Program-made: the position numbers and the translations under genes | Shown: positions 14,724-58,995 of the stretch, piece after piece | Numbering within the stretch: the first letter of the stretch is position 1 | How the letters are laid out: each line of letters opens with the position of its first letter | The notes under the pieces: model-generated | What the model saw: only the letters and a program-made list of their open reading frames with translations | The model's database searches: none | What the model was told of the DNA's origin: nothing | Assembly (NCBI GenBank): GCA_017542055.1 | Contig: JAFXXW010000023.1 | Coordinates: 22,839-86,838 of the forward strand | Direction: 5' to 3' | From: Kiritimatiellia bacterium | Lineage (GTDB): Bacteria; Verrucomicrobiota; Kiritimatiellia; RFP12; UBA1067 | Length of the DNA: 64,000 nt

Positions 14724-14762
14724 TCAGCCTTTCACCAGCTTAAAACAATGTTAGTATCTAAT

Positions 14763-14791
14763 ATTATATCATATTCCGGCCAAAAAAGCAA
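14763..14791 (-). promoter_or_regulatory. Sigma70-type promoter upstream of gyrB
   Basis: Minus strand reads TTGCTT, a 17-bp spacer ending GGAATATGA, then TATAAT (extended TG-10). Belongs to the conserved promoter family in this window. Confidence 0.7.
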
Positions 14792-14808
14792 GCAAAATCT
14801 GCACCAAT

Positions 14809-14840
14809 CGGTAAATCGAACAATCGGTAAATCGGTAAAT
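14809..14840. repeat. 8-bp tandem repeat array (cggtaaat x4, one degenerate)
   Basis: cggtaaat cgaacaat cggtaaat cggtaaat, immediately upstream of the gyrB -35. The same array recurs at 51097 and 51825. Confidence 0.8.
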
Positions 14841-14842
14841 GC

Positions 14843-14932
14843 CGGGGGGGTGCCCACCCCCTCCCCCTATCGCCCAATAGGGCGTCACCCCCTCGCCATA
14901 CGGGGCGACACCCCGGGGGGTGCTTACCCCCC
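14843..14932. other. Cluster of GC-rich hairpins (homopolymeric G/C runs)
   Basis: Hairpins ggggggtg/caccccc, cgccc-aata-gggcg, tcgcc-atacgg-ggcga and gggggg-tgctta-cccccc. No T-tracts. Confidence 0.5.
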
Positions 14933-14993
14933 TCGCCCATACCCCCCCTTGAGCTTTTCCGTCTCGACCTGCACCCTGATTCCGATAGCCTTT

Positions 14994-15030
14994 GTATCTG
15001 CGCTTATTATATAAGCGCGCATCCAGATAC
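14994..15030. repeat. 37-bp imperfect nested palindrome
   Basis: GTATCTG CGCTTAT TAT ATAAGCG CGCATC CAGATAC: an 8-bp inner stem plus a 7-bp outer inverted repeat. Confidence 0.7.
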
Positions 15031-15043
15031 AATCGGTCCCGAC

Positions 15044-15063
15044 GAATCCGATATATCGGATTC
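15044..15063. repeat. Perfect 20-bp palindrome GAATCCGATATATCGGATTC
   Basis: The sequence equals its own reverse complement. The half-site ATCGGATT recurs at 15154. Confidence 0.85.
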
Positions 15064-15211
15064 CATCGAACATCTAATTCAAGGCAATAAAGATTCTATA
15101 ATATTTTTCGCAACTTGCCGTCAAGGCCAAAAGTGATTCCGACAAACTCCCTTATCGGATTTACCCTCCATCGGTTTCATCTAATTCAGCCAAAACGCAA
15201 TTTGCTTTAAT
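15064..15211. other. AT-rich region with iteron-like 22-bp direct repeats (tccatcg..catctaattca x2); candidate replication origin of the adjacent helicase module
   Basis: Sits immediately 3' of the helicase gene. GC is far below the window average. Direct repeats at 15062-15084 and 15167-15191. TATAAT-like and TTATCCATT motifs are present. Confidence 0.45.
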
Positions 15212-16873: not shown

Positions 16874-17451
16874 TGTCTTGCTCCTTCCGGCTTGTCTTCC
16901 TGCTCCACTCGATTCCATCTGCCGATCAGATTGTCGAAGCGCGCCCAAAGTTCCGAATACGCGCCAATCCACTTGGACGACATAAGTTCGCCAGTTTCGC
17001 CGGTGAATACATCCAGCCAAGCCTTACGCGTCGCATCATGCGCTTCGATGAGACGCAAGACCGGCCATTCCAGTTCCGGACGCTTTTCCGCCAAGAGACG
17101 GAAAAAGCCGTCCCACGACCGTTTCATCGCATCTAGCGCATCCTGTAGCGCATCCTGTTCTGGATACTTTAGTCTGCCGGCAAGCGCCGAAAAGCGGATG
17201 AGGTTGCTCACGTCGTAGGTGGCAAGCAGTTTGTGAATCTCTTGGACGGGAAAGTTGGCCGAATCGTCCTCACGCACTTGCCCCGCCAAATAATCCAGCA
17301 TTTTCGCGGACAACTCCGGCACCTGCACCAGCTCCGCCACCACCTTTCCGCGTTCCGAAATAAATCGCCTGGCGTTCGTGCGTGCCGCTTCCACCGCCAC
17401 TTTCGCGAGCGATCCCATTTCCGCGTTCTGTCTGGTTTCTTTTTCGAGCAT
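16870..17451 (-). CDS. Hypothetical protein (middle gene of the ATPase-helicase operon)
   Basis: 193 aa measured from MLEKET (an alternative start at 17472 is possible). No recognisable motif. Translationally coupled to the helicase gene. Confidence 0.5.
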   Translation of the reverse strand: MLEKETRQNAEMGSLAKVAVEAARTNARRFISERGKVVAELVQVPELSAKMLDYLAGQVREDDSANFPVQEIHKLLATYDVSNLIRFSALAGRLKYPEQDALQDALDAMKRSWDGFFRLLAEKRPELEWPVLRLIEAHDATRKAWLDVFTGETGELMSSKWIGAYSELWARFDNLIGRWNRVEQEDKPEGARQ

Positions 17452-17455
17452 ATCG

Positions 17456-18643
17456 TTATCGAAATAGATCAAGTGGATTCAGCGCCAGAAAATCTCCAAC
17501 CGGCATGCCTTCCGGCCCTACCAGCAAAACTCCATGCGGCTTGAATCGCTTGCGGAATTCCGCCATTCCCGAAGTAAACGTTTCTCGATTGGTCTTCACT
17601 TCGATCGCCACCAATTTCCCCTGTTTTTTCAGCACGAAATCAACTTCCAATTCGCCATCTCGCCAATACATCGCTTCGTAGTTGTCGACAAATGCCCTGG
17701 ACATCAAATGGGCCCCTACCGCCGATTCCACGCAGCGACCCCATTCTACCGGGTTGGACATGATATCTTTGGGCGGCACTCCAAGATAATGGCTCCTAAG
17801 CGAATTGTCGTGAACCTGGAATTTGGGCGAACTGGCCCGTTGGCGCGCCTGGTCGACCGTGCACTTGGGCAAGGCCGAAAGCATTCCGGCCGCCGATAGC
17901 AAAGCAAGGTACCCCGCGAGCGTGGTGGTATTGCCCGCATCGACGAGCGATCCCATCATCTTGGTGTAAGACAGTTCCTTGCCGGAATATTGCGCCCCCA
18001 ACTCGAATGCTTGCCTAAGTAGCGCCGGCTTGGCCACATTCGATCCCATCAGCACATCTTTCTGGATGGTGGCCTCGATTATCGAAGTGCCGATATATTC
18101 CGACCATCGTTCATAATCTTTCGCCAAGGTGGCAGCACCGGGGTAACCGCCGAAATACATATACTCCACTTCGTCAAATCCGAATGCCGCCTGCATTTCC
18201 GGGAAACTCCAATGCGCCACTCGCAACTCTTCGAATCTCCCCTGCATGGACTCGGACAGTCCTCGCTCCAGCATTACCCTTGAAGACCCCAACAATACCA
18301 CTTTAATGTTGACATCGGCGAAAGTATCCGCATCCCACTCTTTCTTGACCGCTTCGCTCCAATTGCGGATCTTCTGGATTTCGTCGATCGCCAGCACGAA
18401 TTCCCGATCGCCGCCCACTCGCATCCTGGTGCGAGCCAATTCCCAGGTATCGCCGATCCATCCCAGATTTTCGCTGGGAACTGCATCGGCCGAAACATAC
18501 AAGTACGGAACCTCAAGTTTGCTCAAAACCTGCTTGACAATGGTCGTCTTGCCCACTTGCCTGGGGCCCACCAATACTTGGATGAACCTGCGCGACTCTT
18601 TCAATCGCGCCAACAGTTTTCCGCATGCCTCACGTTCGTACAT
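17456..18643 (-). CDS. AAA+ ATPase (AAA_14-like) fused to a DUF4143 domain carrying a PD-(D/E)xK-like nuclease motif
   Basis: Walker A motif GPRQVGKTT. C-terminal WRDGELEVDFVLKKQGKLVAIEVK, i.e. a D..EVD...K / E-x-K arrangement. Confidence 0.75.
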   Translation of the reverse strand: MYEREACGKLLARLKESRRFIQVLVGPRQVGKTTIVKQVLSKLEVPYLYVSADAVPSENLGWIGDTWELARTRMRVGGDREFVLAIDEIQKIRNWSEAVKKEWDADTFADVNIKVVLLGSSRVMLERGLSESMQGRFEELRVAHWSFPEMQAAFGFDEVEYMYFGGYPGAATLAKDYERWSEYIGTSIIEATIQKDVLMGSNVAKPALLRQAFELGAQYSGKELSYTKMMGSLVDAGNTTTLAGYLALLSAAGMLSALPKCTVDQARQRASSPKFQVHDNSLRSHYLGVPPKDIMSNPVEWGRCVESAVGAHLMSRAFVDNYEAMYWRDGELEVDFVLKKQGKLVAIEVKTNRETFTSGMAEFRKRFKPHGVLLVGPEGMPVGDFLALNPLDLFR

Positions 18644-18653
18644 GTCGCTTGCC

Positions 18654-18707
18654 TTTTACTCAATACCTTGCAGGATTTTACTCAATGACTGGTAATTTTT
18701 TACTCAA
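18654..18707. repeat. Three direct repeats TTTTACTCAA(T/C) spaced 21-22 bp, in the leader between the -10 element and the start codon
   Basis: Repeat copies at 18654, 18676 and 18697. The spacing corresponds to two helical turns. They overlap the predicted TSS region. Confidence 0.7.
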
Positions 18708-18715
18708 CAGATAGT

Positions 18716-18745
18716 ATTATATCATATTTTTCGCCCAAATGTCAA
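18716..18745 (-). promoter_or_regulatory. Consensus sigma70 promoter (TTGACA-18-TATAAT) for the ATPase/helicase operon
   Basis: Minus strand reads TTGACATTTGGGCGAAAAATATGATATAAT. Confidence 0.7.
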
Positions 18746-18837
18746 TAGAGAAATACAAAATGTTTCTTCCCGCCAGCCCATGCGCCACCCGGCAGATAAC
18801 GATGCGCTGTCGTTTTGATCCCGATGAACACCGCGCC

Positions 18838-18880
18838 GCATCCCGATCAAATTATCACCGCATCCCGATCAAACTGCCCT
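18838..18880. repeat. Two 16-bp direct repeats CCGCATCCCGATCAAA separated by 6 bp, plus a related half-site
   Basis: Seen directly in the sequence. Located about 95-140 bp upstream of the -35 of the 18716 promoter. Confidence 0.7.
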
Positions 18881-18913
18881 TGAGGGCGACAGAAGCGATA
18901 AACTTCGCTTCGC

Positions 18914-19912
18914 TTACTTGGCACCCAGTATTTCCGCTTTTTTCCTAGCATATTCTTCGTCGGTCAAAAGTCCTTTCTCGTGTAAGCTGTCCAATCGTTT
19001 GATTCGCGCTTCAACTTCTGGACCAGGCGTTTTCTTGGTTGCCACTTCACCCTTGCGCTTAATCTTTGGCTTGGTCGCTTTGGCTGCAGGTGCTGGCTTG
19101 GCGACTGGCACTGGCTTGTCGGACAGTTCAACCTTTACCGCAGGCGGCGGAGCTTGCTCTATCTTAGGCTCCGGTTTGGCGACTGGCGGATCGATTCGTG
19201 CCTTGTCGTTTCCACCGAACTTGAAGTTTACGAGCGGAAATTTCCATCCGTTGGCATTCCGGTTCCAAAGACCGATCTGCACCGACCAGTCCGACCCGGA
19301 AGGATCGTGCTCTTTGATTTCATTGTAGAGACCTGCAATCTGCAACCCGCTACCGTACTTTGCCTGATTGCTGAGGCCCGCCACTTGAATTCCGCCGAAA
19401 TCCTCGCTACCGTTAAACAAACTTCCGACTTGAATACCGTTGAGTTCCTTCGCCCGGTTCCACATGAGACCCACCTGAATGCCGTTCATGTCCAGCACCT
19501 CCGAACCCCACCAGCCAATGCCTAGCCCATAGACAGACCGCTGCGCAAAGCACGGATACTCCCAGCCTTCGACAGAATTGGGTTTTCGGGGACCGTAGGC
19601 GAACGGAACAGGATGGAAATCCTGAATCATAATGCCGCATATGTTCCAGTGATAGGCTCCAACTTCGCCAAACGAATAGGAAAAAGGCGACCAAGTGTCG
19701 GACGGAGCTTTTCGCCAAGCCTCCATACGCCGCTCCATACGCTGCTCCTGACGTTTGAGATTTAGCTCCTGAAACTCTTGTCGCTCCTCGGCAGTAAGGA
19801 AAAGCGTCCCTTTTCTCCGCACCACATCCTCGATTGGCTCCTTTTCCCCTGATTTAGGCGTATGGCACGCCACTATCGGCAGACACAGCAAAAGACCAAG
19901 CAATTTTTTCAT
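18914..19912 (-). CDS. Lipoprotein with GIQVG-type internal repeats and a C-terminal SHOCT domain
   Basis: Lipobox IVAC. Repeats NGIQVGLMW / NGIQVGSLF / GGIQVAGLS / GLQIAGLY. A Pro/Lys-rich linker. C-terminal LHEKGLLTDEEYARKKAEIL. Confidence 0.7.
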   Translation of the reverse strand: MKKLLGLLLCLPIVACHTPKSGEKEPIEDVVRRKGTLFLTAEERQEFQELNLKRQEQRMERRMEAWRKAPSDTWSPFSYSFGEVGAYHWNICGIMIQDFHPVPFAYGPRKPNSVEGWEYPCFAQRSVYGLGIGWWGSEVLDMNGIQVGLMWNRAKELNGIQVGSLFNGSEDFGGIQVAGLSNQAKYGSGLQIAGLYNEIKEHDPSGSDWSVQIGLWNRNANGWKFPLVNFKFGGNDKARIDPPVAKPEPKIEQAPPPAVKVELSDKPVPVAKPAPAAKATKPKIKRKGEVATKKTPGPEVEARIKRLDSLHEKGLLTDEEYARKKAEILGAK

Positions 19913-19913
19913 T

Positions 19914-20453
19914 TCAAAGCTCCTTGATGATTGCGGATTTCTTCTGTTCGTATTCTTCCTTGTTCAAAAGACCTTCCTCGTATGCGAGCTTGAGTTCTTG
20001 CAAATTTTGTCTCATCGGGTCGTTCGCCTCCATCTCCTCTGCGAGATATCCATACTCCTGCACCAGTTTCAGGTTGTTGGCGCGATTGACATCCATTATC
20101 GCTCCAGCCATGCCGAATGGCATTGTCACCGAATATATGTACGGGAACCATGACACCGACAATAAAAGCACCCCGCTGCCATTAAGCTCCGCTCTGTCGT
20201 AATCGTGGTTTTCGATGGCCGCATCGCCCATTTTGTTGGCGATAAACATTTGCCCCGCACCCGGCAAAATACTCCAGAAAATCGCTGGCGTCATTTTGAC
20301 GGCCGGTTTGTATCCTGGCGGCGGATTGCCTGCCCAACTTACCCCCTGTTCGTGCAGTCGATCCAATTGCGCCCGCTCTTTTTCGTACACGCGCACGGAA
20401 TTACACCCGGCCATGCCGGCCAGCATCGCCACCATCAATATGCACTTTTTCAT
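19914..20453 (-). CDS. Lipoprotein with a C-terminal SHOCT domain
   Basis: Lipobox LAGMAGC. C-terminal LKLAYEEGLLNKEEYEQKKSAII. Confidence 0.7.
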   Translation of the reverse strand: MKKCILMVAMLAGMAGCNSVRVYEKERAQLDRLHEQGVSWAGNPPPGYKPAVKMTPAIFWSILPGAGQMFIANKMGDAAIENHDYDRAELNGSGVLLLSVSWFPYIYSVTMPFGMAGAIMDVNRANNLKLVQEYGYLAEEMEANDPMRQNLQELKLAYEEGLLNKEEYEQKKSAIIKEL

Positions 20454-20763
20454 AGCATCCTTTCGTTTTCTGTTTTACCGCGTGCGATCCACAAAAAGAA
20501 AACCTCCCTTTGTATCTCTAGAGAGGCTGTGAGAATTGCCCAGATGGAAATACAAAGAGAGGAAGTGCGTTTGCACTTTCCCTGCCAAGTTTCGTCCATC
20601 TTGAAACTTCTCACATTTCTCTAGACGATCGCTTTGCAGCGTTGCAAATTGTCTGTCACTCCGCGCGTTGGCGCGGCGACGTTTGGCGGGGCGTTGCCCG
20701 CCTATACCGTTTTACCTTCTGCCGTTTCCTTTCATTCGGTTCAACGATGGTTTGAAATCTTGC

Positions 20764-21108
20764 TCATGGTTTCGGCAGTTCTGACTGTATGGCGGACAAC
20801 TGCTTTCTCATCTTCGGCAATACGCCGCGAACCGTTTCCCACAATGCCGCATAATCAACCCGCATGTATTCGTGGGCTATCATATTGCGAAGACCCACCA
20901 TCTTGTGCCATTGCACTTCCGGATGGTCGGCCTTCATCGCTCCAGACACCATGTGCGCCGCCTCGCCGATAATCATTATATAACGCTCGGCTGCGGCAAG
21001 CTTATCCTTGTTCTCAAGAAAATCTTCTTTCCGGATGCCGTCGGTCGATTCAAGCGCATCATCGATAGCGCCAAGAATATGCAGGATTCGATCGTAGTCG
21101 CGCATCAT
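20764..21108 (-). CDS. hepT: HepT-like (DUF86) toxin of a HepT/MNT toxin-antitoxin pair
   Basis: RNxxxHxY motif LRNMIAHEY. ATGA overlap with the upstream MNT gene. Confidence 0.8.
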   Translation of the reverse strand: MMRDYDRILHILGAIDDALESTDGIRKEDFLENKDKLAAAERYIMIIGEAAHMVSGAMKADHPEVQWHKMVGLRNMIAHEYMRVDYAALWETVRGVLPKMRKQLSAIQSELPKP

Positions 21109-21407
21109 ACGCTCACCATGTCCCTTCTTACTTCTTTGGCAAACCAAGGACTGCGCTCGTTGTCGATGCACCCATACGAGACAACATCCACTTCACGCCC
21201 CAGAACTCTCTCCATATCGTCTTTAAGGTCGATTGCGTCGAACAGGTTATACTTTGGCGCATACTCCACGAGAAAATCCACATCGCTGTCAGGGCGCTCT
21301 TCCTTGCGGGCGCAGGAGCCGAAGACCCAAAGCTTTTCGGCTTTGTGTTTCCGCGCGATAGCGTAGATTTCGTCCCGCTTCGCCCTGATCTCATCGAGCA
21401 TGCACAT
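21105..21407 (-). CDS. mntA: Nucleotidyltransferase (MNT) antitoxin
   Basis: GSCARKEERPDSDVDFLV nucleotidyltransferase motif. 100 aa. Confidence 0.8.
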   Translation of the reverse strand: MCMLDEIRAKRDEIYAIARKHKAEKLWVFGSCARKEERPDSDVDFLVEYAPKYNLFDAIDLKDDMERVLGREVDVVSYGCIDNERSPWFAKEVRRDMVSV

Positions 21408-21430
21408 GGATTTCCCCGTTAGATGCTAAT

Positions 21431-21459
21431 ATTATACCATATTCCCACCCGAAAAGCAA
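21431..21459 (-). promoter_or_regulatory. Promoter P1 of the MNT-HepT operon
   Basis: Minus strand reads TTGCTT, a 17-bp spacer, then TGGTATAAT. Confidence 0.65.
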
Positions 21460-21614
21460 GCAGAATCTGCGAAAACTCCCCAACTCCAAAACTCCCCCAA
21501 GCGAAAGCAACTCCCCACCCGTCAAGCGGAAAGCGGGGAAAGTGTGAGACGGGAGGTATGGTCAGTAGGCGGCGAGCTTGAGTTCGTCCGTCATGCCCTT
21601 GAAGAAATCCGAGT

Positions 21615-21643
21615 ATTATACCATTTTCCGCCTCAAAAAGCAA
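21615..21643 (-). promoter_or_regulatory. Second promoter-family copy (P2), 184 bp upstream of P1
   Basis: Minus strand reads TTGCTT, a 17-bp spacer, then TGGTATAAT. Starts right after the GT8 stop. Confidence 0.6.
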
Positions 21644-21653
21644 GGGGAATTAT

Positions 21654-22616
21654 TCAGCATCCGTACTTAAGGCGGATATTGAGAAGGTAAAGGAAATAGC
21701 AAGCCAGGTCAAATGCGCCTTGCGGGAGAAACTTATGGAGATAATACTGGAGGAGGTAGCACGGCTGCATGGGCCGCGTCTGTTCGGCCGCAAGCGCCAA
21801 ATCCGCTTCCCGCGCCGCCTCCCGGTAGCGCTCGCGCAAGGGATGGCGCGAGCTCGTATACCAGGGCCGGCCGAGCGTATGGCCGAGAAAATGGAAGATG
21901 CGCGGGTCTTTTTGCGCCTCCAAGTATTCCTTTTCGCCAAAGCGCATCACGCCGCCATTAACGCGCCTTACCCCCGCGTACGAAAAAAGGAAATAGTGCG
22001 AAATAAAGTTCCACTTCGGGTGCAAAAGCGCCGTCTCTTCCGGGAACAGGCGCACGAACACATCCTGGTCGCCCAAAGGATTGGGTCCGTGGGGGTGGGC
22101 GAGCTCGTCCAAGAAACGCTCAGTGCAGCGATGCTCGCGCCACGCTTCAAGGTCGATCACCATCACCCCGGCATTGTAATACGGCAGTTCTTTTGGATGG
22201 TTGATCGCTCGCTTGTATGTCCAAGGCACGCAGTCGGTCGCAAGCGCCAGAGGCTTCCCGCCCAAATCCTGCTCCCACAGCTCCTTGAGGCTTCCGCCCA
22301 CCAAGGTGTCGCAATCAAGATAGATTACACGCTTTTGCGCCAAGAGCTCGGGAATGAAAATGCGTGCGTAGGTGGCGTAAGACGTGTAGCCGTTATAGCC
22401 ACGCGCCTTCAGGTTTTCGAGCGCCCCGCCCACCTCGACATAGCGGAAAGACCCGCCCTTCGCCTCCACCCGGCTTTGCACGAGCTCCCGCGCCGCCGCC
22501 TCAAGCCCATACCCCAAAAGCACGATCTCCGCACCCGGATTGTGCGTCAAGGCCGAAACCGCGCTAATGGCCGTAAGCGCAACGTAATTTGCATCGCTCG
22601 CGTAGACCAAAGTCAT
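21654..22616 (-). CDS. Glycosyltransferase family 8 (LPS/general stress protein A-like)
   Basis: YLDCDTLV and NAGVMVIDL motifs. 320 aa. Confidence 0.8.
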   Translation of the reverse strand: MTLVYASDANYVALTAISAVSALTHNPGAEIVLLGYGLEAAARELVQSRVEAKGGSFRYVEVGGALENLKARGYNGYTSYATYARIFIPELLAQKRVIYLDCDTLVGGSLKELWEQDLGGKPLALATDCVPWTYKRAINHPKELPYYNAGVMVIDLEAWREHRCTERFLDELAHPHGPNPLGDQDVFVRLFPEETALLHPKWNFISHYFLFSYAGVRRVNGGVMRFGEKEYLEAQKDPRIFHFLGHTLGRPWYTSSRHPLRERYREAAREADLALAAEQTRPMQPCYLLQYYLHKFLPQGAFDLACYFLYLLNIRLKYGC

Positions 22617-46858: not shown

Positions 46859-46942
46859 TGGTGCACCTGGTGGGACTCGAACCCACACGCCTTGCGGCAC
46901 TGGAACCTAAATCCAGCGTGTCTGCCATTTCACCACAGGTGC
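46859..46942 (-). tRNA. tRNA-Leu (anticodon TAG)
   Basis: Manual fold: acceptor GCACCTG/CAGGTGC; D-arm GTG..CAC; anticodon stem CTGGA/TCCAG with loop TTTAGGT; long variable arm; T-arm GTGGG TTCGAGT CCCAC; 3' ACCA. Confidence 0.8.
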
Positions 46943-51000: not shown

Positions 51001-51036
51001 CGTTCTTCTCTCCAAGTTTTGCTTTTTAAGCCGCGT

Positions 51037-51065
51037 ATTATATCATATTTTCCCCAAAATTGCAA
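51037..51065 (-). promoter_or_regulatory. Promoter-family copy upstream of the BASS gene (part of direct-repeat block B)
   Basis: Minus strand reads TTGCAA, a 17-bp spacer, then TGATATAAT. Confidence 0.6.
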
Positions 51066-51096
51066 GCGGAAAGTGCACATTCACACTAATCACAAT

Positions 51097-51128
51097 CGGT
51101 AAATCGATAAATCGGTAAATCGGTAAAT
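51097..51128. repeat. 8-bp tandem repeat array (cggtaaat x4)
   Basis: cggtaaat cgataaat cggtaaat cggtaaat. Confidence 0.8.
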
Positions 51129-51145
51129 TCTCAGTTAAACACCAA

Positions 51146-51167
51146 GGGCTGGGATTGCTCCCAGCCC
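51146..51167 (-). terminator. Perfect hairpin GGGCTGGGA-TTGC-TCCCAGCCC downstream of the DUF5615 gene
   Basis: 9-bp GC-rich stem with a 4-nt loop, followed on the minus strand by TTGGTGTTTAA. Confidence 0.55.
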
Positions 51168-51173
51168 CGAGTA

Positions 51174-51524
51174 TTAGCGCTTGATCCGGCAAGAGTAGTC
51201 GCGCAAGATACAGACCGTGTCGACCAATGAAGAACCGGCATTGGCCAGAAACCATTTGAGCCGCTCCATGATGGCTCGCCGATTGGGCTGTCTGAGCGCC
51301 ACCACCACTATTCCGGCATGATGCGGATGCAAGAGCGGAACCGTATGGTAAAAGTCGCGATCCGAAGTAAGAATCACCGCTCCCAACCTTTGGGCCGTCG
51401 CGAAAACATCGTCGTCCTCAGCGCCGAAATCGCACGCATCTTCAAACGCAATTGCGATATGCCCGCACTCCTCTACGACCTCGGCCGCAGACTTGGGGAA
51501 GTTCTCGTCCAGCAGAAACTTCAT
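51174..51524 (-). CDS. DUF5615 PIN-like toxin-type protein
   Basis: MKFLLDENFP start. 116 aa. Paired with a DUF433 gene. Confidence 0.7.
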   Translation of the reverse strand: MKFLLDENFPKSAAEVVEECGHIAIAFEDACDFGAEDDDVFATAQRLGAVILTSDRDFYHTVPLLHPHHAGIVVVALRQPNRRAIMERLKWFLANAGSSLVDTVCILRDYSCRIKR

Positions 51525-51757
51525 CAGACCACCGACAAATTACCGTACGGCATGTCTTCAAAGCTGGCAAGCGAACCTGCAAACGCGAAGACTGCGGAAA
51601 TGTCTTCCGAAGTAATGCTGGGATAATCCATCATTATATCGTTTACCGAATCGCCTCCGGCAAGCGCACCAAGCAATTGTGACACCAAAACTCTAGTGCC
51701 GCGAATGACCGGTTTGCCGTGGCAGACGGACGGATTTATCTCAATTCTTTCATTCAT
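51524..51757 (-). CDS. DUF433 domain protein (putative antitoxin)
   Basis: INPSVCHGKPVIRGTRV motif. Real start MNERIEI lies 7 nt from the -10 element. Confidence 0.7.
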   Translation of the reverse strand: MNERIEINPSVCHGKPVIRGTRVLVSQLLGALAGGDSVNDIMMDYPSITSEDISAVFAFAGSLASFEDMPYGNLSVV

Positions 51758-51764
51758 GCCTAAT

Positions 51765-51793
51765 ATTATATCATATTTTCCGCCAAATTGCAA
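51765..51793 (-). promoter_or_regulatory. Promoter of the DUF433-DUF5615 cassette (block A); predicted leaderless
   Basis: Minus strand reads TTGCAA, a 17-bp spacer, TATAAT, then ATTAGGC and ATG. Confidence 0.65.
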
Positions 51794-51824
51794 GCGGAAA
51801 GTGCACATTCACACTAATCACAAT

Positions 51825-51856
51825 CGGTAAATCGATAAATCGGTAAATCGGTAAAT
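51825..51856. repeat. 8-bp tandem repeat array (cggtaaat x4)
   Basis: Identical to the array at 51097. Confidence 0.8.
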
Positions 51857-51872
51857 TCTCTATAAACACCAA

Positions 51873-51894
51873 GGGCTGGGATTGCTCCCAGCCC
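51873..51894 (-). terminator. Perfect hairpin GGGCTGGGA-TTGC-TCCCAGCCC downstream of the giant gene
   Basis: Same hairpin as at 51146. Sits about 30 nt after the stop at 51924. Confidence 0.55.
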
Positions 51895-51923
51895 TCGATC
51901 GTTAGCGCTAAGCTAAAGCGTGC

Positions 51924-54900
51924 TTAGTTGTTAGGCGTGGCACTGACCTTGACGCGATAGAACACCGCAGTAGGCGTGCCATTCACCGCCGGCTTCACGG
52001 GGTCGACAGATGCGCTGGTCGCCAACTTGCGAGTGCCCTCGGTCTTACCTTCAGTGAAGCCCAGGTTGGTGGCCGCCTCGATGGAGTAGTAGAGGCCAGG
52101 CTTGGCAGTCGTGATCGTGACTTCAGTGGCATCAGCATCAAGCGCATCCGCCAGGCCTTCAGTCAGTTCATCGGATTCCGAAGCCGGGAACACAACCTCT
52201 TCATTGAGGTCATTGACCGGATCGACCTTCACTTCATACTTACCGTATGTCGCAGACTGCGTCACCGTGTAGTTGAAGTAGGTCTTGTAAGTTTCGGCCG
52301 TTACGCCAGTAGCGGCAGCGACCACAGCTTCCGGAATCTTCACCGAAGCTGCCGCGATAGCTGCTTCCTCGATCTGCGCCTGAGTCTTGCCCGCAGGGTC
52401 GACCGCCACTTCCTGCGTGGAAGTCGAATCGGTCGGATCGATGCCGGCAGACGCCAGCGTGTAGTAGCCAACCTCTTCGGCTTCCACCCACTTGTAGCCA
52501 TTAGGAATTTCCGAAGTCCAGGTAGCGGAAACCGCAACCGTAATACTGACTTTGCTCATGTCATTGTTGTCATCAACAACAGCAACCGCCTTTGTGGCGG
52601 AGAGCGAAGCTCCGGTCTCGATCCGAACATCGATCGTACGATTGGCATCATACTGGGCAACCGCAATCGCCGCGCCCTTGATGGTGGCACCATTGCCAGT
52701 AGGATTGTAGGAATAGGTGGCTACCGTGCCCGTAATGGAGGCGTTCATGGCAACGGACAAACTACCGTCACGGATTTCGATGCCGGACTCGCCTTTGACG
52801 ATGGCAGTACTGCCAACCGTTACATTAGCATGGCCCTGGACCGCGATACCGCTGTGAACATTTTCTCCACCAGTTGCCTCGGACGCATCAACCGTGCCGT
52901 TCACGACAATGTTGATCTCGTTCTCCTGATTCCTCAGGTTGCCGAGCACGAAGAGCATGCCCTTGACGGTGCCATTGACGGTCACATCAATCTTATTCTT
53001 CGTTGCATTGTTGGAGCCGAACACATTGAGACCATAGCAAGTGCCCTCAAGCGTGACATTCTGACCGATTGTGAGCGTACGCTTGCTGGTCAAATCGCCA
53101 GTGCCACGAATCTCAATCGGAGCCCAAGCAACATCAGTGCATGTAATCTTGCCCGTGCCAGTAACAGTCAAGCTACCACCAGCCAATGCAATTCCGTGCG
53201 TGGTAGTGATGTTGCAGTTGTTGAGATCAAGCGTAATGGCCTTATTCTCGGTCGTAGTAGCATAACGTCCCGAGCCCGCGAAGGCCGGCTCTGCACCCGC
53301 ATTCACGAAGAGACGCTCAGTCAGAGCCACATTGGACACCAACGTCACTGTCTGCCCGTCGGTTGCCGCAGCAAGCGCCTCAGCGAGGGTGGGATACAGC
53401 GTGGTGCCGATTTTGGCCTGAGCCATCGCGAAGGTAACATTGACGACCGAATCACCAGTCACAGCGGCAGTGTAGACATTGCCCACCGGAGCCGGTAGAT
53501 CAACCGGATCGGCTGCGCCCACCTTGATGGTGGCCGAGCTGACGAGGCGGTCACCATAGGGGGTCACCGTGAACGAGAGATCCGCGCCATCCTTGACGTA
53601 GAAGTAGGCTCCTGACGGACCGCCCATTTCAGCCGCGACAGCTTCCGGAACCTGACGGACCAGATCACCAATCGTTACGACGACATTACCGTCACCCGAC
53701 AGATAATCCATCTTAACCGTGCGGCGCTCGCCATAGCCATACTTGACGCGACGGTTGGGCGTCACACCGCTTATGGTCTCCACAATCCAGGTAGTGTCAC
53801 CCAAGAAGAAGGACATCTCATCGCCAATGACATAGCCGCCATCGACCGTGATGTCGATTCCCTGTCCGAACGAGACGGTCTCGCCCACATCGATCGTCAC
53901 CGCCTTATCAAGCACCAGCGCATCAGGCACCGCCTGAAGGAGCTTGACCGTCTGGCCAGCCTCGGCCGCCTCGAGGGCCTCGGAGAAGGTCTCGTACTTC
54001 ACGCCGCCGACCTCTGCGACCCAAGTACCGGCCTGAACGACCCAGTAGCCTTCCTGGAGCTTGGCAATACGGCCAGTGGCGAGGAAGTTCGTGCAGAGGC
54101 CGGAGTCGTCACCCTCTTCAGGGTTGACCTGCCAGAAGGAGCCGCCAGTAATGGTGATGAGCTGCTGAGCTACGTTTGCCTGGTTGACCGCCATGCCCGT
54201 CCAGCCAGTCTTGTACTGGTATTCAACAGCGGTGTTGTTCCTGTAGGTACCGCTATTGATGGTAACAGCAGCACCAGTGAACGGATAGACGCAAGCACCA
54301 GCCTGGGAATTGACGGTGACTGTGAGGTCTTCGAGCGTGACATTCGAGCCGGTTCGCGCCGTGATGGCGTAAACACCAGTAGCAACAATTGCGGTATCGT
54401 CCTGCGTGCAGTCGATGGTGCCGTTCTTGATGGTGACCGTGCCGCTCTTGACGTCGAACACGCTGCCGTTGCCGGAGGTGCCGGTACGGGTGATCTTGTG
54501 TCCGTTCAGGTTAATCGTGACCGGCGACATACCGGGACTCGGTTCCACGCGCTCCGTCAGCGTGATATCTTTGAGGACAACCACTTCCGCGTTATACGCA
54601 GTGGCCACAGCTACTGCCCCGGCCAGCGAATCGTAGAGGGTATAATCCACCCGGGCAACCGCTTCCTTGACCTCCATACCTTCCGGTCGAGTAACCGTGT
54701 CGGTATCGGCAGTAAGGGAAATCACCTTCTGAGAAGCGCCATTGATCACATAATCACCATCTGCCGTATAGGTGATGGTTACATTCTCTCCTATCCTCGC
54801 TTTATAGGTGTTGGTATCGGCATCAACCACTTCAGCATCCCCACCCTGCACCGAGATGGTCGTATTGTCCGGAACCTCGACAGTGAAGGTCTTAAACGCC

Positions 54901-57900
54901 AGTTTGAACGGAATGGTAATGGACAGATCGCCGGTCACCGCAGGAATGGTCGCTACAGCAACCGTTTCGTCCTCTTCCGGCTCTTCCGGTTCGATTTCTT
55001 CGGTGATATCTGCATCACCCATGACAACGGAGAGATCATCACTGTCCCCATCGATTTCGTAGTCCTCATCAGGCGTGATTGTGATTGTCACCTCAACACC
55101 GTGCTTGACCGTGTAAGGCGAAGCCGTACCCTTGATGTCGCTTGCGGAAATAGCAACCGAACCATGCTCAGTTGCAGCAACCGTAACCGTATGCGAAGCA
55201 GCATAGCCAATCGACACGACATTGCCCGCAGTGGCCGCCCAGGTGTCGGTGCCGAGGGTATAGGTGGTGCCAGCCGCAAGGGAAATCATACCGGTCGTCA
55301 TCGTCACCGTGCCCACGCTAGTAACGCCAGAGGCCGCATTAATCGTGAGATTCTTGTCGAGCGTGATGCTCTCGACATTCTTGTTGAGCGTAATCGTGTC
55401 GCCCTCGCTTGCGGCTTCAATCGCGGCAGCCAGAGTCGCATACGGCGTGTTGTCGTACGTCGCCTCCGCCAGAGTCGCCACGAGCTCGTAGTAACCGTTC
55501 TTGTAGTTCTTCGTGTAGAAGTAGTTGACATTGGTAGGAGGCACCACTGTCACCTTGTTGTCAGCCTGATCGATGAGACCGGTGAGCTGATATTCCCCTT
55601 CCGTAACGGCGAGACCCGAGCAGTCGAAGGTCAGCGAACCATCCGCGCTAAGCTGAACCGGAACACCGGTCAAGTCCAGCGCGCCATATTCCGTAGTCAC
55701 CGGAGTATTGATGACGGCAGCCGACGTCGGCTTGACAAAGTTGTCTTCCTCCTTTTCAACCGTAAGCGCCGCATTGCCGCCAATGGTCAGCGTCTCCACG
55801 TTGAGCGTTGCGTTAACGGCCAGAGCAGCGGCACCGTCGACCGTAATCGTCACGGAAGTATTGTAGCCTTCAACAACGCTTTCCGGCAGATCGTACTTGT
55901 TCTCCGTATCGCCGTCGCGATCCCACGCGTCAGTGGCTTCGAGTTCCACCTCGCCGGAAACCGTACGCGTGTAAAGACCACCCTGCGGGACGTAAGGATA
56001 GGCATCAACGATTGCTGCCGCCTGAGCATCCGAAATGGCGTAGTCGAACACCCGGATTACGTTTACAACGCCAGTCTCGGATTCATTGTCGGCAACACCC
56101 TTCCAGATGCCTGCACTGCGAACTCCATTACCGAAGTCCGCACCAACCTGCAAACCGGCCTGGGCAGTCGAACCAAGCGTAAACCCTTCACCGGCATCAA
56201 AGTTGCCACGCTTGATACCGTCAACCCAAACCGTGAATTCCGTTCCGCTCTTGACGATTACGTATGCATGGCGAGCAGTCGCCGCGTTCGGCACCGACAC
56301 CTTAACACCATGTGCATCGTCAACCGTACCGCCAGTATTCTTGGCGATCAAAACCTCATCGGCTTTCTCGGTAGTGGCAATCATGAGGCCGGTGCTGGTG
56401 CTGTGATACGAGCCACCCATGTGGACAAATATCGTCTTGGCTGTCGGCGACATCTGTCCCACCACAACCGCAGTAAAGTTATCGAGCGACGAGAACACGT
56501 CATTGGCATCATTGATGTAGGGCGAGCAACGCAGATAAAGACCGGTCGTTTCATCCCAAGCGTCATTATTGAAAGTCGCCGCGTGGTCGAAATACAGTCG
56601 CGCGCCTTCCTTTGCCTTGTAAGTGAAGGTGCCGGGGTTTTGACCATATCCAGACTTGCCGACATCGTCGCGATTGTTGGCGAAGGTGATATCGAACATT
56701 GTTGCCGCGCCGCCAATCTTCACTTCACCCGTGCCTCGAGAAGCGCTGCCGTTCTCCACCTCCAGAGTCGAGGTCGTTCCGTCGACGCGATTGAGCTTTA
56801 CGTACGAAACTCCTTCCAGATTGGAAACGGCAAACCTATCGTTTCCATATTCCGCTGACGTTTCTTTAATCACAACCGTCGAACCGGTAGTGAACTTAAA
56901 CTCTGCAGGCAACGTGCGGGTGGCACTGATATCGTACACCACATTGGCCCCCAGCGAAATGTCGCCCGTCACCTCGGTGAAATCAAGTTTCTCCACCAGC
57001 ACCTGCGTAAGTTCCGCCTCGCTCGTAAACGCCAGCGTGAAGGAACCGGAGCAAACAAACTTGACGTAATCGTACGTCTCCAGCAACGCAGCCAAATCAA
57101 CCGTGCTGGTTCCGCCGTCTGCAACTTCGATTGTCTTGAACGCCGGCTCAGCCTTGATGATCTGAACTGCCGCAAGACCGGCTCTGGCACCAGGCATGGC
57201 ACGGGTAGTGATCTTGAGCGTTCCTTCTTCACCTCGCGGCAGGATGGGGGAAACCAGATAGTTGCCGTTTTCGGTCAAAGTCGCATTATTGGCGGAACCC
57301 CACTTTTCGGTTCCCCAATACTCCACATCATTAAGCGAGACGTACCCAAACTGTCTGCCGTCGGTATCGTTCGAGAAATAAAGGACCACGCGATAGTAGT
57401 CGAACTCGGACGGAATACCGGTTATAGTGGCAATCGGCGTATCAGTCCCGTTGTTCCGATCGTCAATATAACCATGCAACAAACTCTTAGTCGCCTTGCC
57501 GCCACAGTACCAAGAACCTCTCGTGTCCTCCACCTTGACGCTTGTTCCGGCGGAAACCACCTTGTATCCGGCAGTGGAAACCTTGCTGACGGTCGAAAGC
57601 GGCGAATTGAACGTGCTACCGCCAACCGATGTCATCGTGCTCCAATACGTTCCCGGCACCGCATAGTCGCTCGCGCCAACCTTGCCGGAGGTGGAAATGA
57701 CGGTAGTGCCGGAAGCGAAGTTGATGTTGATGGAGGGATTCACATTACCGGTAAATCCGGCAATCGGCGTATTAGCATTTGCAATCGTAGCAATCTCTTC
57801 AGCCGTAAGCGCACCCTTGAAGATCGCAAAGTCGTCGATATAGGTCGTTCCAATGCTCTGCCCGCGAAGCGACGCATCAGCTGCAGAGCCGGCACGTCCC

Positions 57901-58931
57901 GGGCCCATTGCCGCCTGCTTCAGCACACCGGAAAAGCCGGAGGCGGTCTTGACGCTAGTTCCATTCTGATAAACCGTCAGGCTGCCATCGGTTCCGAATA
58001 CCAGCGCATAGTGCGCCCACTCGCCGGCAGTGTAGGCAAGTCCTGCAAACGGAGCATCGCCAGTGCCTCTATACATTGCAAACGAATCATTGGACATATG
58101 TTCCAAACGATAGTTCTCGCTACCGATGCGCAGCGCAATGAAGGAAGCCCAATCCTGAATATCGGATCCGATGTTGGCCCAGAACGAAACCGTGAAGCCT
58201 TCGGAAGTTCCGACGCCAAGGCCGCTCGTGTTGTCTGCCAGACCCAACGTGCCGCTATTGAGCTTGGCGGACTTAGTGCCAAACTTGACCTCGGTTCCAT
58301 CATAATTGCGATAACCGCTTTTCCAAGCTGTCGGAACTACGGTACCAATGCCGCCATCGGTCGCCAGCGCCACGCCGCCATCACCACAGTTGTCGCAAGA
58401 GATATAGTACAGTAGCTCGCTATGGACCAGCTTTAGACCCGAGACGCCATAACCATTCGTCGAATCGGAAGTGGCAGGAGCAATGGAAGCCTCTCCGTTG
58501 TAGGTGCCATTCTCACCTGACTCCTGGAAGCGATAACCTATGCCATTGGAAGCGGCGATATAACGGGCATTGGTGGCTACCGCCTTGATGTTATCGCCAT
58601 CCTGCGTAAGTTCCACGATAACGCACTTGATGTAGCTGCCATCCTTGGTTTGCAATTCGTAGCGCACCACGTCTTCGGACGAAGAGTTGGTGAACGTGTC
58701 GCGGTTGCACACGGCCGCAGGACCGGGATTGTCGATATAGCCGCCATCCATCGTTGCCGCGAGGAAGTACTTGGTGCCGATTTCCGAAAGCTGCACGCCC
58801 TCGAAAACGGTCGTCGCCGTAGTCGGCACGTACGCATCATATACGAGCGACGTTGCCCATGCACTTGTTCCTAGTATTGCCGCGCATGCGAGGGCGACAA
58901 AACGCATAACCCTTCCTGACGTATGTTTCAC
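51924..58931 (-). CDS. Giant (2335 aa) secreted repetitive surface protein with two LamG/concanavalin-like domains and beta-helix-like repeats
   Basis: GTG start with an AAGGAGG SD. Sec signal MKHTSGRVMRFVALACAAILGTSAWA. LamG-like segments FTVSFWANIG...LTVYQNG and IFVHMGG...FTVWVDG. Thr/Val/Gly-rich repeats. C-terminal FYRVKVSATPNN. Confidence 0.7.
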   Translation of the reverse strand: MKHTSGRVMRFVALACAAILGTSAWATSLVYDAYVPTTATTVFEGVQLSEIGTKYFLAATMDGGYIDNPGPAAVCNRDTFTNSSSEDVVRYELQTKDGSYIKCVIVELTQDGDNIKAVATNARYIAASNGIGYRFQESGENGTYNGEASIAPATSDSTNGYGVSGLKLVHSELLYYISCDNCGDGGVALATDGGIGTVVPTAWKSGYRNYDGTEVKFGTKSAKLNSGTLGLADNTSGLGVGTSEGFTVSFWANIGSDIQDWASFIALRIGSENYRLEHMSNDSFAMYRGTGDAPFAGLAYTAGEWAHYALVFGTDGSLTVYQNGTSVKTASGFSGVLKQAAMGPGRAGSAADASLRGQSIGTTYIDDFAIFKGALTAEEIATIANANTPIAGFTGNVNPSININFASGTTVISTSGKVGASDYAVPGTYWSTMTSVGGSTFNSPLSTVSKVSTAGYKVVSAGTSVKVEDTRGSWYCGGKATKSLLHGYIDDRNNGTDTPIATITGIPSEFDYYRVVLYFSNDTDGRQFGYVSLNDVEYWGTEKWGSANNATLTENGNYLVSPILPRGEEGTLKITTRAMPGARAGLAAVQIIKAEPAFKTIEVADGGTSTVDLAALLETYDYVKFVCSGSFTLAFTSEAELTQVLVEKLDFTEVTGDISLGANVVYDISATRTLPAEFKFTTGSTVVIKETSAEYGNDRFAVSNLEGVSYVKLNRVDGTTSTLEVENGSASRGTGEVKIGGAATMFDITFANNRDDVGKSGYGQNPGTFTYKAKEGARLYFDHAATFNNDAWDETTGLYLRCSPYINDANDVFSSLDNFTAVVVGQMSPTAKTIFVHMGGSYHSTSTGLMIATTEKADEVLIAKNTGGTVDDAHGVKVSVPNAATARHAYVIVKSGTEFTVWVDGIKRGNFDAGEGFTLGSTAQAGLQVGADFGNGVRSAGIWKGVADNESETGVVNVIRVFDYAISDAQAAAIVDAYPYVPQGGLYTRTVSGEVELEATDAWDRDGDTENKYDLPESVVEGYNTSVTITVDGAAALAVNATLNVETLTIGGNAALTVEKEEDNFVKPTSAAVINTPVTTEYGALDLTGVPVQLSADGSLTFDCSGLAVTEGEYQLTGLIDQADNKVTVVPPTNVNYFYTKNYKNGYYELVATLAEATYDNTPYATLAAAIEAASEGDTITLNKNVESITLDKNLTINAASGVTSVGTVTMTTGMISLAAGTTYTLGTDTWAATAGNVVSIGYAASHTVTVAATEHGSVAISASDIKGTASPYTVKHGVEVTITITPDEDYEIDGDSDDLSVVMGDADITEEIEPEEPEEDETVAVATIPAVTGDLSITIPFKLAFKTFTVEVPDNTTISVQGGDAEVVDADTNTYKARIGENVTITYTADGDYVINGASQKVISLTADTDTVTRPEGMEVKEAVARVDYTLYDSLAGAVAVATAYNAEVVVLKDITLTERVEPSPGMSPVTINLNGHKITRTGTSGNGSVFDVKSGTVTIKNGTIDCTQDDTAIVATGVYAITARTGSNVTLEDLTVTVNSQAGACVYPFTGAAVTINSGTYRNNTAVEYQYKTGWTGMAVNQANVAQQLITITGGSFWQVNPEEGDDSGLCTNFLATGRIAKLQEGYWVVQAGTWVAEVGGVKYETFSEALEAAEAGQTVKLLQAVPDALVLDKAVTIDVGETVSFGQGIDITVDGGYVIGDEMSFFLGDTTWIVETISGVTPNRRVKYGYGERRTVKMDYLSGDGNVVVTIGDLVRQVPEAVAAEMGGPSGAYFYVKDGADLSFTVTPYGDRLVSSATIKVGAADPVDLPAPVGNVYTAAVTGDSVVNVTFAMAQAKIGTTLYPTLAEALAAATDGQTVTLVSNVALTERLFVNAGAEPAFAGSGRYATTTENKAITLDLNNCNITTTHGIALAGGSLTVTGTGKITCTDVAWAPIEIRGTGDLTSKRTLTIGQNVTLEGTCYGLNVFGSNNATKNKIDVTVNGTVKGMLFVLGNLRNQENEINIVVNGTVDASEATGGENVHSGIAVQGHANVTVGSTAIVKGESGIEIRDGSLSVAMNASITGTVATYSYNPTGNGATIKGAAIAVAQYDANRTIDVRIETGASLSATKAVAVVDDNNDMSKVSITVAVSATWTSEIPNGYKWVEAEEVGYYTLASAGIDPTDSTSTQEVAVDPAGKTQAQIEEAAIAAASVKIPEAVVAAATGVTAETYKTYFNYTVTQSATYGKYEVKVDPVNDLNEEVVFPASESDELTEGLADALDADATEVTITTAKPGLYYSIEAATNLGFTEGKTEGTRKLATSASVDPVKPAVNGTPTAVFYRVKVSATPNN

Positions 58932-58966
58932 GATTAGCCTCCTTGGATTTTAAATTAGTTACACAT

Positions 58967-58995
58967 ATTATACCACCTTTTGGCCGCCCTGTCAA
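58967..58995 (-). promoter_or_regulatory. Perfect-consensus promoter TTGACA-17-TATAAT for the giant gene
   Basis: Minus strand reads TTGACAGGGCGGCCAAAAGGTGGTATAAT. Confidence 0.7.

Follow-up and report, generated by a model that had tools for sequence, protein, structure and literature searches.

Substrates of the type IX secretion system (T9SS) of Bacteroidota (TIGR04183/TIGR04131) combine a Sec signal with a folded, conserved domain at the extreme C-terminus. This sorting domain lacks a membrane helix and is common to many unrelated secreted or surface proteins, giant adhesins among them. A second set of described systems comprises the giant adhesins of Gram-negative bacteria (LapA/RTX proteins, autotransporters, and the PATR-repeat proteins of the PVC group), whose modular, β-rich bodies are rich in Thr, Val, and Gly and are built from LamG, Ig, and β-solenoid modules. 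A third is found in the rumen, where the dockerins of cellulosomal proteins are small C-terminal modules that tag dozens to hundreds of secreted proteins. Kiritimatiellae, which belong to the PVC group, are glycan degraders, abundant but barely cultured in the rumen and gut. To our knowledge, T9SS is not known in the PVC group, and almost nothing is known about the cell surface of Kiritimatiellae or about export across their outer membrane.

The giant protein analyzed here comes from an uncultured Kiritimatiellae bacterium of the ruminant gut (rumen). It shares with T9SS substrates the Sec signal and a folded, conserved C-terminal domain (CTD) that recurs, without membrane helix, in many unrelated secreted proteins; with the giant adhesins, the size, the composition, and the types of module; and with the dockerin proteins, the habitat and the C-terminal tagging of numerous secreted proteins. 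Yet in the comparisons that follow it matches none of these systems. When its C-terminal 235 and 100 residues were scanned against NCBIfam (E ≤ 10), nothing relevant to T9SS came up, and the predicted CTD is an α/β domain of ~175 aa with no fold match in PDB, not a β sandwich of 70–100 aa. The Sec-type signal peptide implies that the protein is not a substrate of type I secretion, and RTX/hemolysin-type repeats are absent from its Pfam tiles. Autotransporter and type V models were unmatched, and the CTD has helices and about five strands, not a β-barrel of 12 or 16 strands. PEP-CTERM/exosortase substrates had no NCBIfam match, none of 142 family members has a hydrophobic C-terminal stretch, and the giant protein itself ends in FYRVKVSATPNN. 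Dockerins (PF00404), with their duplicated Ca-binding EF-hand-like segments, had no Pfam match among the C-terminal tiles at E ≤ 10; the CTD differs from those of the rumen in lacking the dockerin signature and a known cohesin partner, in its phylum, and in its predicted fold.

Gene and Expression Signals

The gene is an uninterrupted ORF at 51924..58931 on the minus strand, the longest found by ORF scan in the window (the whole stretch of DNA analyzed, 64 kb), with a GTG start and 2335 codons' worth of protein. An identical protein of 2335 aa, annotated as hypothetical, is recorded at NCBI from a Kiritimatiellae MAG (MBR4354621.1) and uses the same GTG after AAGGAGG; metagenome gene callers start instead at Met9, giving 2327 aa (P0001). 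By its ORF and its signals, the gene is real. Its features are listed in Table 1.

Table 1. Features of the giant gene and its product, in window coordinates
Feature	Position	Strand	Residues	Basis
Sigma-70-type promoter, TTGACA-17-TATAAT; −10 preceded by TG (TGgTATAAT)	58967..58995	-		12/12
Shine-Dalgarno AAGGAGG	58938..58944	-		Direct read; 6 nt upstream of GTG 58931-58929
Sec signal peptide, predicted signal peptidase I site AWA/TS	58854..58931	-	1-26	Translation
N-terminal domain, no assigned fold	58422..58853	-	27-170	Start within strain-conserved block of ~146 codons
LamG/concanavalin-A-like module 1	57756..58418	-	172-392	Pfam Laminin_G_3
SININF module, predicted β jelly roll resembling CBM6/CBM35/CBM61	57132..57746	-	396-600	AlphaFold2 and Foldseek
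LamG-like module 2 (probable)	55962..56729	-	735-990	Orthologous modules
Ig-like region with InlB B-repeat-like segment	54657..55514	-	1140-1425	Pfam Flg_new_2
Right-handed β-helix module A (putative)	53928..54656	-	1426-1668	Sub-threshold Pfam Beta_helix
β-solenoid module B (putative)	52452..53417	-	1839-2160	Fold suggested by sequence pattern
CTD, starting at GIDPTD	51927..52451	-	2161-2335	Profile search and AlphaFold2
Terminator-like hairpin, AGGGCTGGGA-GCAA-TCCCAGCCCT	51872..51895	-		Direct read; ~30 nt past the stop codon

The initial annotation had reported the largest gene of the window, its perfect promoter, its Shine-Dalgarno sequence, and its Sec signal, all of which are upheld; it gave neither the strand, nor the true size of the CTD, nor the CBM-like module, nor the fact that another strain has a different gene body. 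With one mismatch or none allowed, the promoter is the sole match in the window (0.07 expected by chance). It is unchanged in a second allele (L007) and matches at 11/12 positions upstream of the homolog P0002 (in L008); upstream of homologs in other species the matches are weak. The further claim that these are the strongest expression signals in the window holds only for the perfect −35/−10 pair, as the extended −10 TGATATAAT is stereotyped and present in eight other promoters of the window. The consensus motifs would suggest high expression, although a consensus match is a sequence similarity and not evidence of expression. GC3 is 0.64 in the giant gene versus 0.79–0.89 in its neighbors, which argues against a codon-optimized, very highly expressed native gene. 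Downstream, the hairpin has a twin copy at 51168..51145 that scored as terminator-like, and the 43 nt around the former are 100% identical in allele L007.

Modules of the Protein Body

The signal peptide, VKHTSGRVMRFVALACAAILGTSAWA/TS, contains a single Cys, in VALAC, which lies inside the hydrophobic core and is preceded by A-L-A. No lipobox ([LVI][ASTVI][GAS]C) is found at its end, and the protein does not classify as a bacterial lipoprotein. The composition (T 12.2, A 11.5, G 10.3, V 10.1%) bears out the Thr/Val/Gly-rich character noted initially. The β-helix-like repeats described along with it fared less well, as self-BLAST revealed no internal repeats and the best match to Pfam Beta_helix (PF13229; E 0.006, 16.7 bits) is below the cutoff of 25.9. 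This match concerns the putative module A, of which P0004 has two copies and the UBA3750 protein one. Module B has no match in Pfam or among PDB sequences; its homolog forms four repeats in P0003 and is also found in P0006 and P0019.

Of the two LamG modules that had been proposed, the first is clear: residues 242–381 match Laminin_G_3 (PF13385) with E 2.4e-17 and 63.9 bits, well above the gathering cutoff of 27.6, which places the module in the family. Tiling was needed to reveal this match; the full-length Pfam scan gave nothing. This module is also present in P0006 and P0009–P0014. The second one is probable, and is supported through its orthologous modules, two of seven of which match Laminin_G_3 (best E 5e-6); its own sequence has no Pfam match, and hhalign aligns it weakly with the first (probability 7.6%, E 0.005), with matching C-terminal strands. 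The N-terminal domain has no Pfam match; it shares 80% identity with the N-terminus of allele P0005. Within the Ig-like region, Flg_new_2 matches at residues ~1247–1306 with E 8e-5 to 1e-4 and 22–23 bits, just below the cutoff of 23.6.

The hallmark of the family is a module of ~205 aa, here called SININF, which is present in 18 of the 24 homologs (P0002–P0025), and twice in P0018. It has no Pfam family. Its AlphaFold2 model is all-β (pLDDT 86, pTM 0.88), and Foldseek relates this model to CBM-type jelly rolls with probability 0.96–1.0, E 1e-3 to 1e-2, and TM 0.3–0.5, the best neighbors being CBMs attached to glycoside hydrolases. The weak fold match of a predicted model thus suggests a jelly roll like those of CBM6/35. 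The predicted topology is similar to that of CBM6, CBM35, and CBM61, and SININF has invariant aromatic and acidic residues (the invariant positions being W, Y, D, N, R, and Q), but these CBMs are of ~130 aa and no relationship was found at the sequence level. No catalytic family was found in Pfam, NCBIfam, or PDB sequences in any tile or in the homologs examined. The Sec signal, the carbohydrate-binding-type modules, and the lack of a recognizable enzyme domain would fit a secreted modular protein.

All members of the family are giant mosaic proteins that reuse the same modules in varying order; the putative β-helix modules recur in duplicate and in shuffled positions, as spacers would. One homolog (P0016) carries autotransporter-associated repeats (PF12951). 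The closest relatives of the giant protein come from ruminant metagenome assemblies.

A Lineage-Specific C-Terminal Domain

The C-terminal tail had been singled out as a candidate sorting signal of ~90 aa. It is indeed conserved in hundreds of secreted proteins, but it is the end of a larger unit, a domain of ~175 aa. The core motif is PGLYY, followed after ~41 aa by FYRVKV and a short tail; among members the spacing between the two elements is 37–48 aa, and the general pattern is GIDP...PGLYY, about 41 aa, GFY[KR]VxV(S)xTP. A search with the CTD profile returned 573 protein cluster representatives at E ≤ 1e-3, and 156 at E ≤ 1e-10. Of the 142 proteins examined, 139 have no more than 15 residues after the end of the domain; one member carries it internally and another has two copies. 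A signal-peptide-like N-terminus is found in 97 of 112 full-length members. No membrane helix was found in members of the family, nor any hydrophobic stretch in the last 45 aa of the 142 members. The cargo of the proteins bearing the domain is diverse, with InlB repeats and a SASA esterase domain among it.

The CTD is covered by no model in Pfam or NCBIfam, and neither database matches it to a known type of anchor. The AlphaFold2 model is confident (pLDDT 84, pTM 0.79) and shows an α/β fold in the order β-α-α-α-β-β-α-α-β-β, with about five strands, for which no structural match was found in PDB or BFVD. Judging from these searches, the CTD is a lineage-specific, previously undescribed domain. 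Its spread and its extreme C-terminal position resemble those expected of a sorting or anchoring signal, and it is from position and distribution that we infer such a role. No second copy is found in the window or its flanks. Among ten loci of family genes no machinery could be linked to the domain, the neighbors being housekeeping genes except in one locus, which adjoins a secretin/Tad-like cluster.

A Strain-Variable Locus

The locus of the giant gene is a strain-variable cassette. In a second strain (L007) the flank and the 5′ end of the gene are 98.1% identical over 3385 nt, and the identity of ~98% reaches from the flank into the gene as far as 58494. The promoter, the ribosome-binding site, the signal peptide, and the first ~146 codons are thus conserved between strains. 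Past this block the sequences are unrelated, the second strain having at the same site a different gene body of 2582 aa, and 100% identity resumes 11–13 nt after the stop codon. The site lies downstream of a CxxCxxCC gene, and in 80 related loci it is occupied by accessory genes that are unrelated. A toxin-antitoxin cassette adjoins the giant gene, and GH123 and GH20 genes are found near it.

Interpretation

We lean towards viewing the giant protein as a strain-variable, glycan-binding surface protein in which the CTD serves as a lineage-specific sorting or anchoring module, a function that is read from sequence, position, and predicted fold. Its body would present ligand-binding-type modules in series (LamG, the CBM6/35-like jelly roll, and a probable second LamG), completed by Ig-like segments and probable β-solenoid spacers, and closed by the α/β CTD. 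The signal peptide, as a sequence feature, would carry the protein over the inner membrane. The CTD may then act as an address tag, for passage through the outer membrane, retention on it, or both, since hundreds of secreted proteins, otherwise unrelated and without a membrane helix, end in it; the logic would be akin to that of the CTD of T9SS substrates, or of a dockerin. From the folds, one would expect the extended body to display its glycan-binding modules at a distance from the cell, where they may adhere to or capture glycans of the host or of plants. A replaced gene body would be expected if the protein is exposed and phage, predators, or host exert diversifying selection on it. A bolder and more doubtful proposal is that Kiritimatiellota have an as yet undescribed pathway for outer-membrane sorting or attachment, that the CTD marks its substrates, and that giant CTD genes are exchanged between strains as cassettes that vary the surface. 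If so, the PVC group would have in this pathway a counterpart to the T9SS-CTD or exosortase systems.

Other readings concern either the domain or the whole protein. The CTD could be a dockerin-like or oligomerization module with no role in translocation, docking secreted proteins non-covalently to a surface scaffold or to each other. It has the distribution of dockerins in rumen bacteria, at the C-terminus of many unrelated secreted proteins, and is predicted to be a folded α/β domain, not a short peptide signal; we nevertheless regard this as unlikely, because dockerin and cohesin models were unmatched in Pfam and NCBIfam, repeated Ca-binding loops are not visible in the sequence, and no partner protein was identified. 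It is quite improbable that the giant protein is not an adhesin but a released polysaccharide-degrading enzyme, a β-helix lyase or hydrolase with CBM and LamG as accessories. The lifestyle of Kiritimatiellae, the two GH genes close by, the glycoside hydrolase context of the best fold neighbors of SININF, and the sub-threshold Beta_helix match would all suit such an enzyme, but the searches for a catalytic family were negative and the putative β-helix modules behave like spacers.

The initial annotation had also considered a surface adhesin or an S-layer-like component. A secreted modular protein would fit; the S-layer part finds no support. A very highly expressed S-layer protein, or another major structural protein of the coat, would agree with the perfect promoter, the strong ribosome-binding site, and the short leader. 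Against it, SLH and other S-layer models were unmatched in Pfam and NCBIfam, strains have wholly different gene bodies, GC3 is atypical and far below that of housekeeping genes, and the promoter loses distinction given the eight others nearly as near consensus and the weak matches of homologs in other species, so that this origin appears very remote. Still harder to credit is a tail-fiber-like receptor-binding protein of a prophage or mobile element, fallen by chance in a variable spot: phage fibers typically have β-helix, Ig-like, and CBM-like modules, and the site is variable and has a toxin-antitoxin neighbor, but a Sec signal peptide is present, phage genes flank family genes in none of the ten loci, and the CTD model has no match among the predicted viral structures of BFVD.

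With more than 570 protein clusters and neither a database model nor a structural neighbor, the CTD offers a concrete foothold for predicting which proteins of this lineage are secreted or at the surface, and a starting point in the search for machinery that recognizes it. The clean swap of a 7-kb gene body between strains that are 98% identical marks such proteins as hot spots of strain-level variation, which is relevant to phage-host and host-microbe interactions. Because the gene body is replaced between strains, metagenome assemblies break at such loci.

The Giant Gene and Its Product

The giant gene is the longest ORF of the 64-kb window, an uninterrupted frame of 7008 nt that encodes 2335 residues from a GTG start. 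AAGGAGG lies 6 bases 5′ of the GTG, and the TTGACA-17-TATAAT promoter with a TG extension found upstream is the only site in the window with at most one mismatch to this consensus (0.07 expected by chance in 64 kb). The product starts with a standard Sec signal without a lipobox (VKHTSGRVMRFVALACAAILGTSAWA/TS, the slash marking the A-x-A cleavage site), ends in FYRVKVSATPNN, and is rich in Thr (12.2%), Ala (11.5%), Gly (10.3%), and Val (10.1%). It is identical to MBR4354621.1 (hypothetical protein IKP97_04910 [Kiritimatiellae bacterium]), and at least four further metagenome contigs have the same allele, there with Met9 as the start chosen by gene callers. The initial annotation, which reported a largest gene of 2335 codons with a perfect promoter, AAGGAGG, and a Sec signal, is largely correct; all of these can be read in the sequence, and the NCBI entry has the same length.

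The same annotation attributed to this gene the strongest expression signals of the window. Its promoter is indeed the best match to the consensus, but there are eight other extended −10 promoters with the 9-mer TGATATAAT (0.03 copies expected), each with GGAAATA ahead of it and a TTGAyw-type −35 at 17–18 nt. It seems that the extended −10 promoters of the source organism are unusually close to the consensus. The giant-gene promoter is conserved in the second allele (see following) and matches at 11 of 12 positions in a close relative, with poor matches in more distant family members. GC3 is 0.64, versus 0.79–0.89 in neighboring genes. The abundance of TGATATAAT promoters, the poor distant promoters, and a codon usage unlike that of housekeeping genes weaken the case for exceptional expression; from its signals, high expression is plausible.

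Features of the window around the giant gene
Feature	Position	Strand
Giant-gene ORF	51924..58931	minus
AAGGAGG	58944-58938	
TTGACA-17-TATAAT promoter with TG extension	58995..58967	
TGATATAAT promoters	14763, 18716, 31629, 39012, 50013, 51037, 51765, 62961	minus
Upstream of giant gene: ABC-F ATPase, 90-aa ORF, CxxCxxCC protein		
Downstream of giant gene: DUF433/PIN toxin-antitoxin pair, SBF transporter, ArgG, GrpE, DnaJ		
108-nt direct repeat	51025-51132 and 51753-51860	
Terminator-like hairpin of each repeat copy	51145-51168; 51872-51895	
DUF433/PIN cassette	51174-51808	
tRNA gene (Rfam)	46862-46942	minus
Low-GC island	~14000-22000	

Modular Architecture and Homologs

Scans of the full-length protein against Pfam and NCBIfam returned zero families (with hmmscan, none even at E ≤ 1), and a PDB sequence search returned nothing. 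When the protein was cut into 400-aa tiles, Laminin_G_3 of Pfam matched residues 242–381 (LamG1; E 2.4e-17, 63.9 bits). Because this domain is seen only in tiles, full-length negatives are unreliable on such proteins. Whole-protein scans can miss families in long proteins of biased composition.

Two LamG modules had been proposed, and LamG1 bears out the first. The second, at residues ~735–990, has no Pfam match in its own sequence and draws on its orthologs: two of seven orthologous modules match Laminin_G_3 at 5e-6, and in a profile–profile comparison with LamG1 the expected C-terminal strands align, weakly. This region is probably a second LamG. For the β-helix-like repeats of the initial annotation there are sequence patterns, such as module starts of the type YxTLxEAxxAAxxGxTVxL that recur four times; however, internal sequence repeats are absent from the protein, and the top Beta_helix score (16.7 bits) is under the Pfam cutoff. 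Such patterns suggest putative β-helix modules.

The 205-aa “SININF” module (residues 396–600), which has no Pfam family, is found in 18 of the 24 homologs and is a hallmark of the family. AlphaFold2 confidently models it as all-β (pLDDT 86, pTM 0.88), and the best Foldseek neighbors of the model are the jelly rolls of CBM6, CBM35, and CBM61 (probability 0.96–1.0, E 1e-3 to 1e-2), which occur isolated or joined to glycoside hydrolases. No catalytic domain was found in the giant protein among Pfam tiles, NCBIfam, and PDB sequences, and the module profiles gave nothing credible in the PDB.

All 24 homologs are unnamed proteins of 1300–3000 aa, and their samples are ruminant gut assemblies (record names XIEF21, WILK20, STEW19, SHIW14, and TONG22). 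They reuse the modules of the giant protein in differing orders and copy numbers. For example, P0003 has four copies of the putative β-solenoid module B (residues 1839–2160), and P0004 has two of module A (residues 1426–1668). Judged by such comparisons, the homologs are mosaics that draw on a common module pool. A scan of GTDB genomes with the whole protein yielded a single short contig, which belongs to Verrucomicrobia bacterium UBA3750; the literature search gave zero matches for UBA3750 and nothing relevant on Kiritimatiellae surface proteins, LamG, or a C-terminal domain.

A Widely Reused C-Terminal Domain

The strand-rich C-terminal tail of the initial annotation is shared with other proteins, but it forms just the final strand of a domain of ~175 residues (2161–2335), hereafter CTD. 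The alignment of eleven family members shows a GIDP(T)D start, PGLYY, (G)FY[RK]VxV ~41 residues further on, and then a short tail. Word-index protein searches were weak (10 fragments with the CTD alignment, no match with the N-terminal 164 residues of the giant protein), hence an exhaustive HMMER search was needed. Run with a profile of the 180-aa region on 1.84 billion cluster representatives, it matched 573 proteins at E ≤ 1e-3, 156 of them at E ≤ 1e-10. Among the 142 new proteins within the 150 best matches, the CTD ends at most 15 residues from the C-terminus in 139 (median 1), is internal in one, and is duplicated in one; the PGLYY-to-FYRV spacing is 37–48 residues, and the final 45 residues are free of hydrophobic stretches in every one of these proteins. 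A signal-peptide-like N-terminus is present in 97 of the 112 full-length proteins. Lengths range from fragments of ~100 aa to 3483 aa, and the bodies are mostly without annotation, some having a sialate O-acetylesterase domain or InlB repeats.

No model in Pfam (to 2025) or NCBIfam (June 2026) matches the CTD. AlphaFold2 confidently predicts an α/β structure from the 11-sequence alignment (pLDDT 84, pTM 0.79), for which Foldseek finds no neighbor in the PDB (best E 0.15, TM < 0.2) or among predicted viral structures. The only significant PDB sequence match, 9n2z (E 2.6e-4), was rejected: it is the de novo designed isopeptide protein DIP013, and the match was taken as chance and nonhomologous because this computationally designed protein has an idealized β-strand sequence.

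Some homologs (P0006, P0010, P0018, P0019, and P0021–P0024) lack the CTD and end at G-T-x-F-(T/S)-V-Y, a second class of C-terminus and perhaps another kind of signal for anchoring or strand donation.

The giant protein combines sequence features of Sec export, binding-type modules, and a strictly C-terminal shared domain. The surface-protein reading of the initial annotation is reasonable. By analogy with the CTDs of T9SS or with dockerins, the CTD would direct passage through the outer membrane or retention at the surface, and the body would serve glycan binding or adhesion. T9SS, autotransporter (T5SS), PEP-CTERM, T1SS/RTX, lipoprotein, SLH, and dockerin were each tested for the giant protein and rejected. 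Giant modular surface proteins are a familiar class, to which this protein belongs; what is new beyond the class is an undescribed, widely reused CTD without structural neighbor.

At ten family loci, the search for CTD-linked machinery found housekeeping neighbors except at L092, the only one with secretion genes nearby. This metagenome locus (1–30452) has the CTD-bearing 3483-aa giant P0109 in tandem with a 3225-aa giant ending in AGFVKIVLE, followed by PP2C, a Ser/Thr kinase, RcpC, a secretin, and an FHA-T2SSE ATPase. It is a single lead, not a pattern.

Two Strains with Different Gene Bodies at One Locus

The giant gene stands alone amid housekeeping genes. Rfam matches the window just once, at a tRNA gene, and near the giant gene there is neither a riboswitch nor another known RNA. 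In another sample, the locus is occupied by P0005, a homolog of 2582 aa, on a contig that matches the window at 98.1% identity over 3385 nt (61878–58494), a stretch that spans flank, promoter, and gene up to ~codon 146; beyond this, only two short patches of 76%–86% identity are found, until the contig becomes 100% identical again 11–13 nt past the stop codon, for 43 nt to its end. The CTD of P0005 is of a different subtype, ending in GFIKVILKAAP. Given the nearly identical flanks and divergent middle, these are two strains of one species that share promoter and signal peptide but differ in the gene body. The exchanged part lies between a conserved 5′ block (~58494–58995) and the terminator (51869–51911). 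This exchange between strains, clean and cassette-like, is the second point that goes beyond the familiar class. Family genes often sit at contig ends, which is consistent with population heterogeneity.

Other alleles were sought among metagenome contigs with the upstream CxxCxxCC protein as query, which gave 80 loci of related species (L009–L088), from rumen Kiritimatiellae-like organisms in which this protein is 67%–83% identical. Downstream of the CxxCxxCC (YkgJ-like) gene, these loci have a wide variety of unrelated accessory genes, among them DUF4143-type ATPases, regulators, and small unknown genes; none of the 80 contains a gene with the CTD or the “SININF” jelly roll. The site looks like an insertion hot spot.

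On the downstream side, the DUF433/PIN cassette sits between two copies of a 108-nt direct repeat, which share 94% identity at a distance of 728 nt. Both copies come with the same terminator-like hairpin, a promoter, and a short tract of taccgattt repeats. The cassette, with a GC3 of 0.50–0.67, looks to have been inserted by duplication of an intergenic module. Elsewhere in the window, GC drops to 51%–56% (versus ~62%) in an island that encodes an AAA_25 protein, a DUF4143/AAA_14 ATPase, and two secreted or lipoprotein-like proteins; one of these two has a Pfam SHOCT tail, which the tail of the other resembles by visual inspection alone. The island probably represents a mobile or accessory element.
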